Assembly (NCBI GenBank): GCA_041497455.1
Contig: JBGQGO010000001.1
Span: forward strand, 1 to 39,272
Direction of reading: 5' to 3'
DNA: 39,272 nucleotides
From: Blastocatellia bacterium
GTDB taxonomy: Bacteria > Acidobacteriota > Blastocatellia > UBA7656
Shown here: piece by piece, positions 12,001 to 15,000 of the stretch
Position numbering within the stretch: position 1 is the stretch's first letter
Layout of the letters: each line of letters begins with the position of its first letter
Program-made: the position numbers

Positions 12001-15000
12001 AAGTGGGGGCTGACCGATTCACGTGAGCTGTATGACTGGCACCGGAAAGCCGTTATCGGTACCATCGAGCGCAAGAACGGCTCGATCATTCAGCTTGACG
12101 ACGTGGGAGCCGAGAAGGTGCGCTGGAACTTCGTCAACGCCTGGCCCAGCAAGTGGGACGGACCCGACTTCAGCGCCAAGGGCAACGACGTGGCCATCGA
12201 GGCTTTGACGATTAGCTGCGAAGGAGTGGAACGGGCATGAGTGCTCTTCGCACCGAATTTGAATTCGTTCTCCCAAAGGGTTTCCTTGACCAGGAGGGCA
12301 GTGTTCATCGCGACGGGGTTATGCGGCTGGCGACCGCCGCCGATGAGATCCTCCCTCTCAAGGACCCTCGGGTGCAGTCGAACCCTGCGTATCTGGTTGT
12401 CATCTTGTTGTCGAGAGTGATCAAACAGCTTGGCTCACTCGAGGTCATCAATCCCAAGGTGATCGAAGGGTTGTTTGCTGCTGACCTTGCTTACTTGCAG
12501 GAGTTCTACAATCGCATCAATGCGAACGGCACGCGGGTGATGAAGGTATCGTGCCCGCACTGCCAACAAGCGTTCGAAGTGGAGCCGGAACAACTGGGGG
12601 AATCATAGGCTATCCCCTCGAGCAGCTTTACGAGGAGATAGCCTACGTCGCCTATCACTTTCATTGGCCGCACGAGAGTCTCCTGTCGCTCGAACATGCC
12701 GAACGCCGGCAGTGGGTGCAGGAGATCGTCAAGATTAACCGTGCGGCTCAGCGGTCCACGCGATGAGAGATCGAGAAGCTCTCTGCTTGTCGCAACCAGT
12801 CAGCGACAGTCTTGCTGAACCTGCGTTCTAAGGACCCGGCACAAGCGGGAAGGAAATAATGAGCGACGAAGAAGCAGCCGGAACCAGCTCGCGGAGCGGC
12901 CAGATGCCGGAAGGAGTCCGTAGCCGCCTATCGTGGCGTCCGCCTTCGGTCCGCGCTGCGGAGTCTCTCATGGCGGGAAGAGAGAGTCAGACATCTCCCT
13001 TCTTGAATAGAGCCCGGCGATTGTTCTCGCTGCACAGTCAGTTGGCGCGGCGCGTGCGAGCGTGGCCGGGATGGCCGCCGTTCTCGTTCGAGTTTCCGGC
13101 GGCGGATGGTCCAACGCTGGCTCACCCGGCCGAGTCGCGTGAGCGCCCGGCGGAGCGTCAAAGCTTTTCACCCGGTATTGCCTCCGCAGGGAAAAGCGAA
13201 GGACGACGCGGCGTGGTGGCTCGCTCTGCTGGCGGCAATGCGGCCGCTCATGCAAAGAGTTCGCGGCTTGTGATTCAGCGCTTCGCGGATCAGTCGGCGC
13301 CTTCAACGGCTCGGCCACAGCCGCGCGTCCAGTCTTTCGTGACTCGCCCTCGGATAGCACTCGCGACGCTCACGCCGATACCAACGACGATGCCGGGAAG
13401 GCTTGTAAGCCAATCCGGCAGTCTGGCACGCGAACAGACTGAGGAGGGTCTTCCGAGGAGTGGCTGGCATCCCGTCTTTTCAGCCGAAAGCGAGACCTGG
13501 GCAACTGGCAACGGTCCTCGATCTGTCGCTTTGCCGGCGGCATCTCGTGGACAGTTTCCGTGGAATCAGAATGCGCCGAGGTCTAGTTCGCGCGAAGGTC
13601 TCTACCAGGCCTTTGCAAGGCATCGCGGTCTTAAGCCAAGCGTGACGGCGGCTCCGCGTCGCGAAGTGCACGGTGGTTTTCCCGTTATTCGTTCTCCACT
13701 GGCGGCGCAACCTGAAGCGGGGAGACTGGGAGGTGAATCGGCAACGTCATTCTTGCCACAGCGCCAAGAATCTTATGCGGCGATCAGTCGGCGATACGCG
13801 GCTCCGTTGCCGGCAACATCATTCTTGGTACGGCGCCCGGAAGCTTATACAGAGGAGCCGGCTGCTTTGGCGGAATGGGCAGAGACTCTTGAAGCTCATT
13901 CGCCCTCTGCATCACAGCAGGCGTTAGAATTGGCGGGTACCACACTCGAAGCTGAGGGGGCAATCGAGAGTCTCATAAGGCGCACGGTGATGCCTACGCC
14001 GCTTCCGGGGCTTGAATTTCGGTTACTAACCGGTGAAAAGCAATCAGGAGCAATCAGGCATCAAATAGAGGCTGCCGAGGACCGGGAGTCTGCGACTGGG
14101 ACACCAATGACTTCAGGTTCCACGCAGGCGCCGGCGCCGTTCCAGCAGCCATCCCCCCAACTGGACATCAACGCCGTAACCGACAAAGTCTACCGGGAGA
14201 TCATGCGCCGCCAGCGACTGGAGCGCGAGAGGAAGGGGTTGTACTGATGCCATTGACCAAAGCGTTGATCATAACGACTACGCCTCGCGGACAAGTAATA
14301 CCTGTTATGTTCAATCCGCCGCAGTATGAGATTACCAAGACCAACGAGTTCGCGGAAATCGCCATTCCCGGGCTCGGCTCGTCGCTGCTCCAGTTTGTTA
14401 AGGGCAACATTCAGACGCTCAAACTGGACCTGTTCTTCGACACAACCGACACTCGCCGCGACGTGCGGTTCTTCACGTCGAAGGTAGTGGGCCTGACCGC
14501 GCTGAGCGCGGTGACTCATGCGCCGCCCGTGATGTTGTTCATCTGGGGGTCTCTCGTTTTTCCATGTGTGCTCGATAGTGTCACCGAACGGTTTGACTAT
14601 TTCGGCGCGAACGGCGCGCCGCTCAGGGCGACCCTCAGTGTATCGTTGAAGGGCTACGACGTAATCGAGAGCCTCCTGTCACTGGTGCCGTTCGAGTCGG
14701 CGGACAGGACCAAGCGGCGCGTGTTCAAGGCCGGGGACTCGCTGCAAAGGATCGCTGCCGAGGAATACGACGACCCCAGGAAATGGCGCCCTATAGCCCA
14801 GGCGAGCAACATCGATAATCCGCTGACCATTCCCAACGGGCGGGGCCTAACGGTCCCTACGTTGAAATAGAGTGAACCATGGCGTTGCAAGGCTTTCCCA
14901 AAAACACGTTTGTCCCGGCATTCGAGGTGAGCATCGGACAAAGCCTGTTGGCAGCGGCTGTCGCCAAGCTGATAACTCAAGTGACGGTGACCGAAACCGC

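Follow-up and report, generated by a model that had tools for sequence, protein, structure and literature searches.

An extracellular contractile injection system (eCIS) locus from a Blastocatellia bacterium raises the question of how a conserved reading frame that holds no ATG, and lies in the −1 frame of the small gene before it, comes to be translated. We analyzed a 39,272-nucleotide (nt) window, meaning the whole stretch from position 1 to 39,272 of the forward strand of contig JBGQGO010000001.1 (assembly GCA_041497455.1). Downstream of its tube gene lie a small open reading frame (ORF), ORF1, with features of a tail-assembly chaperone, and ORF2, the −1 frame encoding a DUF6760 domain. An initial annotation had likened this arrangement to the E/E′ genes of phage P2 and proposed programmed −1 frameshifting. 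Our analysis supports that proposal through the frame relation, the G run at the end of ORF1, the missing start of ORF2, a downstream hairpin, homology to P2 E′ and a predicted chaperone fold. On the evidence of the sequences, ORF1 and the DUF6760 frame very probably constitute one tail-assembly-chaperone gene that is read in two frames by a −1 frameshift. The features in question are as follows.

11806–12240, + strand: tube gene, T4 gp19-type, directly 5′ of ORF1 (Pfam Phage_T4_gp19, E 1.1e-45)
12237–12608, + strand: ORF1, putative chaperone, short 0-frame product of 123 amino acids (aa), 13.7 kDa
12596–12602, + strand: putative slippery heptamer G GGG GAA, in phase with ORF1
12602–12766, + strand: −1 frame extension, DUF6760, 54 codons after the slip, ending at TGA 12764–12766
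12606–12645, + strand: predicted stimulatory hairpin downstream of the heptamer, conserved core 12608–12643
12859–14247, + strand: 462-aa ORF in the tape-measure position (by position only)

The −1 frame and its putative slippery heptamer

ORF1 runs from ATG 12237, which overlaps the tube gene stop (ATGA, 12237–12240), to TAG 12606–12608. The −1 frame is open from 12485, after TGA 12482–12484, to TGA 12764–12766, and its match to DUF6760 (PF20546; E 1e-15; 58 bits, with the cut-off at 27) sets in immediately at the stop of ORF1, where the initial annotation had placed the start of the conserved part of ORF2. The same annotation's remark that no ATG is available also stands: the −1 frame of the window contains none, and the earliest possible start is GTG 12551. 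A promoter and terminator scan of 11500–13200 found neither between ORF1 and ORF2.

In the 0 frame, ORF1 ends CTG GGG GAA TCA TAG, with the G5 run at 12596–12600; the sequence confirms the run before the stop that had been proposed as a site of re-pairing in the −1 frame. The heptamer is phased such that GGG (12597–12599) is the P-site codon and GAA (12600–12602) the A-site codon. Taken alone, GGGGGAA does not exceed chance in the window (4 matches against 4.55 expected), and the heptamer therefore draws its significance from position, phase and conservation in related loci, not from frequency. GGG makes up 24% of glycine codons elsewhere in ORF1.

For comparison we used 92 loci holding both parts, 12 from related genomes and 80 from a scan of 185,579 species genomes, with 299 relatives in all. 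Both the −1 overlap and the G run, whose retention in homologs the initial annotation had suggested examining, are kept: DUF6760 lies in the −1 frame of ORF1 in all 92 loci, as it does in 6 further, more diverged ones, and an in-phase heptamer occupies the same place in 90. Its forms are G GGG GAA (56 loci, as in the window), G GGG GGG (27), G GGG GAG (4), G GGA AAA (2) and G GGG GGA (1); of the two exceptions, one has G GGG directly followed by TAG and the other has no heptamer. The ORF1 stop comes directly after the heptamer or 1–5 codons later in 90 of the 92, and in one more it is the A-site codon itself. The heptamer had been described as non-canonical, which is right for the window but needs correcting for the family, where G GGG GAA is the majority form beside the canonical G GGG GGG and G GGA AAA. 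That two loci replace the G run with G GGA AAA, a textbook X XXY YYZ, argues for tandem slippage by the ribosome and not for something inherent in runs of G.

The bacterial carriers include Acidobacteriota, Cyanobacteria, Verrucomicrobia, Planctomycetes, Actinomycetota, Bacillota, Proteobacteria, Nitrospirae and Myxococcota, and the archaeal carriers, which span several orders, include Methanosarcina, Methanoperedens and Methanothrix. ORF1 identity across carriers, from Archaea to many bacterial phyla (loci L015, L038, L045, L047, L049, L066 and others), is 63–80%, which points to recent transfer of these eCIS loci between domains with the frameshift cassette intact. The sediment metagenomes that contain the window's G5 also hold contigs of other organisms with a G7 cassette (GGGGGGGTTTTAGGCTACCCCCTC; near 12606–12627), so several eCIS lineages appear to co-occur there.

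ORF2 varies between loci in the manner of a coding sequence, with pairwise variability of 0.29, 0.19 and 0.51 at codon positions 1, 2 and 3 (3 > 1 > 2). Its frame is open in 87 of 87 loci, and the other two frames contain stops in 86 and 61. These patterns clearly indicate that ORF2 codes for protein and is under purifying selection.

The downstream hairpin and the predicted products

In 88 of the 92 loci, 5 nt separate the heptamer from the conserved element that follows. RNAalifold, applied to 86 distinct sequences, puts the start of a hairpin 5 nt beyond the heptamer; of the 11 pairs in this hairpin, 5 show compensatory changes. The predicted stem pairs in 94.7% of cells, against 30–69% with the partners slid, and none of 500 shuffles matches the observed stem pairing, both-side changes or covariation score. 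Some of the covariation crosses amino-acid changes in ORF2 (CTC..GAG, CTG..CAG and CCG..CGG), and third-position variability in ORF2 rises from 0.39 within the hairpin to 0.55 beyond it. In the window itself, the hairpin at 12606–12645 has a minimum free energy of −21.6 kcal/mol (z −4.82; 0 of 200 shuffles as stable), adds two outer pairs to the conserved core and carries T..A at a pair that is C..G elsewhere.

The sequences show the anatomy of the gene, its conservation and its homologies; the slip, how often it happens and the binding partners of the two products we infer. Most ribosomes would stop at TAG 12606 and release the 123-aa chaperone. In a minority, the hairpin would stall the ribosome while GGG occupies the P site and GAA the A site; these ribosomes would shift one base backward and read the −1 frame as far as 12766. 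After the shift, tRNA-Gly would again pair perfectly with GGG, and the pairing of tRNA-Glu with GGA would include a G:U at the central position. The predicted long product, join(12237..12602, 12602..12766), would have 176 aa and a mass of ~20.2 kDa. A tandem slip would leave the junction ...EQLGE/IIGYPLEQ... (EQLGEIIGYPLEQ), and a slip in the P site only would leave ...EQLG/GIIGYP... (EQLGGIIGYPLEQ). If the products act as those of lambda G/GT and P2 E/E+E′ do, the short one would coat the 462-aa tape-measure-like protein, and the long one would use its E′-like DUF6760 domain to recruit tube subunits as the eCIS tail is assembled.

The extension can be related to a known frameshift product at the level of profiles. 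Comparison of the DUF6760 profile with the P2 E′ extension by hhalign gives a probability of 93.8% (E 1.8e-7, 41 columns), and the control comparison with P2 gpE gives 0.16%. PF06528 (Phage_P2_GpE) is not among the hmmscan matches of the single DUF6760 sequence in the window, which places the relation at the profile level, below the Pfam cut-off. As judged from these profiles, DUF6760 is a homolog of the P2 E′ frameshift extension. A complex prediction of the tube protein with DUF6760 scored 0.00 and gave no verdict.

ORF1 is predicted to have the fold of a tail-assembly chaperone. It matches phrog_508, 'tail assembly chaperone', with E 1.7e-6, and its AlphaFold model (pLDDT 81) has as its top match in the Protein Data Bank the HK97 chaperone 2ob9 (probability 0.95 but E 0.09), followed by YqbN 3klu. 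Against a library of viral structures, the model hits Mu FS-gp41 with E 2e-3 and, more strongly, T4-like baseplate hub assembly proteins (E 1e-7 to 7e-5). Among 47 ORF1 homologs, weak matches to Phage_TAC_7 (PF10109) occur in 11 (best E 0.032) and to Gp41_Mu (PF23746) in 10 (best E 0.012), none reaching the curated cut-off. The ORF1 profile found nothing among PDB sequences. A tblastn search of 50,697 phage records found no ORF1 homolog, so this chaperone lineage appears to be specific to eCIS. In the alignment of the 47 homologs, the chaperone domain is followed at the end of ORF1 by a single CxxC knuckle in which C106, P107 and C109 are invariant. Residues 102–122 amount to half a zinc ribbon, the single CxxC fitting only the first knuckle of Zn_ribbon_4.

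Proteins that join the two parts in one frame are rare. A search of 1.84 billion representative proteins yielded in-frame ORF1–DUF6760 fusions in P0070 (150 aa, a cluster of 3) and P0130 (159 aa), and the CxxC segment is absent from both. Searches for related loci found nothing with P0130 and solely loci of the usual −1 arrangement with P0070. In the same protein set, gene callers mostly predict DUF6760 as proteins of 50–90 aa with inconsistent N-termini.

Other routes to the second frame

DUF6760 could instead be a separate small protein, started at GTG 12551 or by termination–reinitiation at a non-AUG codon overlapping the ORF1 stop (ATC 12602 or ATA 12605); a 4-nt start/stop overlap would likewise put the downstream gene in the −1 frame. 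Public annotation follows this model. In the two RefSeq records inspected, the Prokaryotic Genome Annotation Pipeline (PGAP) calls a 'phage tail assembly protein' or 'hypothetical protein' and then a separate 'DUF6760 family protein', the latter from ATA in a Nostoc plasmid and from GTG in a Streptomyces plasmid, and the heptamer is present in both. In Nostoc sp. UHCC 0926 plasmid pn3 (L102 2860–3030), the DUF6760 coding sequence starts at an ATA that overlaps the upstream TAG. The ATA start looks like an annotation workaround for a missing start codon. The initial annotation's check for an own start in homologs came out against independent initiation: in 50 of the 92 loci, the part of the −1 frame from the last stop preceding the conserved YP up to that YP contains no ATG, GTG or TTG; the 27 G7 loci do not have even an ATN codon before the conserved part, and several loci have a −1 frame stop 0–5 codons before the G run. 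Where start codons do occur 17–20 codons upstream, they are by-products of the invariant CxxC cysteine codons, and in many of the loci a stop intervenes before the conserved part is reached. GTG 12551, which had been put forward as the alternative start, is one of these: the codon and a weak AAGG upstream of it are both present, but we read the GTG as such a by-product. An ATG lies 2–3 codons before YP in 10 loci, solely where a TGA stop follows GAA. We also considered the G run as a Shine–Dalgarno sequence and rejected it, because the run ends 1 nt before the only candidate start, which is too close. Independent initiation would, moreover, leave the in-phase G run, its G GGA AAA replacements and the hairpin at a fixed 5 nt unexplained, and we consider a separate protein unlikely.

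The fused product might also arise if RNA polymerase added one G within the run, joining both frames in the mRNA. Homopolymer runs can cause polymerase slippage, one extra G would suffice, and a fused protein is evidently viable, since in-frame fusions exist, if rarely. Five G are nevertheless few for polymerase slippage, two loci carry G GGA AAA, which is a classical heptamer for ribosomal slippage and contains no long homopolymer, and a strict codon phase with a hairpin 5 nt downstream is a hallmark of ribosomal rather than transcriptional slippage; transcriptional slippage is, on these grounds, very improbable. An indel introduced into the G run during sequencing or assembly, or decay of the gene that left its second half untranslated, can be entertained because homopolymers attract errors and the genome was assembled from a metagenome in 919 fragments (contigs). 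Yet contigs from four sediment metagenome runs share the G5 with no indel, which makes an assembly error unlikely, the frame relation recurs in 92 independent assemblies including complete genomes, and the second half is under clear purifying selection. We give artefact or decay almost no credence.

Several observations nonetheless weigh against programmed −1 frameshifting of ORF1 into DUF6760. GTG 12551 with its weak AAGG is available in the window, and ATG or GTG codons overlap the ORF1 stop (2–3 codons before YP) in ~10 of the 92 loci and in one Streptomyces plasmid, so independent initiation is possible in a minority. G GGG GAA departs from the strict X XXY YYZ pattern, and after the slip the A-site tRNA-Glu would face GGA with a G:U at the central position. 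Both arms of the hairpin encode conserved residues (GYPL and EEVA), which means that part of its conservation is at the protein level. The hhalign comparisons of ORF1 with P2 gpE and with Mu gp41 are not significant, and the 462-aa ORF is a candidate tape measure by position alone.

The surrounding locus and known systems

The genes for sheath, tube, spike, baseplate, AAA ATPase, Pvc16-type cap and DUF4157 proteins cluster at 4895–25267 by Pfam, identifying the window as an eCIS locus. Besides the features given above, Pfam assigns the following.

4895–7306: AAA ATPase
7327–8610: eCIS_core/DUF4157 protein, 427 aa
8891–9781: Pvc16_N (cap gene)
9784–11781: sheath
14247–14870: CIS_tube
listed after CIS_tube: VgrG, PAAR and gp25 genes
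17421–23159: Baseplate_J protein, 1912 aa

The 427-aa eCIS_core/DUF4157 protein is encoded between the ATPase and Pvc16 cap genes; DUF4157 proteins are cargo in AlgoCIS (PMC8894135). In the 1912-aa baseplate protein, the Baseplate_J domain is confined to residues 1335–1511, and the remainder has no Pfam match.

The gene order claimed at the outset (sheath, tube, small ORF, −1 ORF, tape measure) is borne out as far as the −1 ORF, but its last member is assigned from position. Searches of Pfam (E up to 10), NCBIfam and PHROGs yielded no family for the 462-aa ORF, whose only matches are unnamed Atlas clusters. The protein is rich in R, S, A and P, of low complexity, and looks largely disordered apart from ~30 C-terminal residues resembling a conserved helix; it would be an unusual kind of ruler, should it serve as one. 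The CIS cluster of Streptomyces coelicolor is said, in a passage of PMC12237407, to have no tape-measure gene. Streptomyces plasmids carry the chaperone–DUF6760 pair with the heptamer.

We found no description of the frameshift in the literature on DUF6760 and eCIS/CIS, including PMC8894136, PMC8894135, PMC12237407 and PMC12210884, with subscription journals not covered; the initial annotation's statement that it knew of no frameshifted chaperone for eCIS agrees with this. A −1 frameshift here would give the uncharacterized DUF6760 a role, as the frameshift extension of an eCIS tail chaperone and a homolog of P2 E′. Because PGAP calls two genes, sometimes with an ATA start, this reading also corrects a systematic annotation error. 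Neither the slip site nor the hairpin would survive recoding or codon optimization of the operon, which matters for expressing or re-engineering the particles. Since the cassette is very regular over ~90 loci in two domains, it offers a convenient natural system for studying non-canonical G GGG GAA slippage, archaea included. A broader idea, which we find attractive but stop short of favoring, is that one cassette of G-run heptamer, 5-nt spacer and hairpin works on both bacterial and archaeal ribosomes and has travelled with eCIS between the domains, and that DUF6760/E′ is a general tube-recruiting module. The travel is suggested by the 63–80% identity of ORF1 in Methanosarcina or Methanoperedens to that in Acidobacteriota, Cyanobacteria and others. 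Were this idea true, the archaeal loci would represent a widespread natural case of −1 frameshifting in archaea, and eCIS loci described as having no length control would possess a chaperone and ruler of the phage type.

Among known systems, P2 gpE/gpE+E′ (NC_001895; operon FI-FII-E-E′-T) likewise has a small chaperone gene between the sheath and tube genes and the next tail gene of a contractile tail. In both, the long form comes from a −1 slip near the end of the short ORF (here predicted), and the homologous extensions of P2 E′ and DUF6760 have a common FHW...E..W core. The P2 slippery site is T TTT TTG, whereas that of the eCIS loci is a G run (G GGG GAA). Unlike P2 gpE, ORF1 carries a CxxC knuckle and has no significant sequence match to it, and the host machine is not a virus but a cellular eCIS with AAA ATPase, DUF4157 and Pvc16 proteins.

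Lambda gpG/gpGT offers the other close parallel, with two products from one gene through a −1 slip just 5′ of the tape-measure gene (here the slip is predicted and the tape measure assigned by position). The lambda heptamer G GGA AAG is nearly the G GGA AAA of two eCIS loci. Unlike lambda, the eCIS genes show no detectable sequence relation to gpG or gpT, their signal includes a strong conserved hairpin, and the machine is contractile and non-viral. A conserved tail-chaperone frameshift of long-tailed phages was reportedly described by Levin, Hendrix and Casjens in 1993 and by Xu, Hendrix and Duda in 2004. The ORF1 model also resembles the structure of the HK97 chaperone 2ob9, and its best structural matches in the viral library are the Mu FS-gp41 and T4-like 'baseplate hub assembly' chaperones; unlike this structural likeness, the sequence comparison with Mu gp41 is not significant. 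T4-like phages use a non-frameshift mechanism, to go by the title of Vladimirov, Gautam and Davidson (2022). The eCIS signal is a further case of the kind known from lambda G/GT and P2 E/E+E′, and eCIS assembly appears to have kept the two-product chaperone system of phages.

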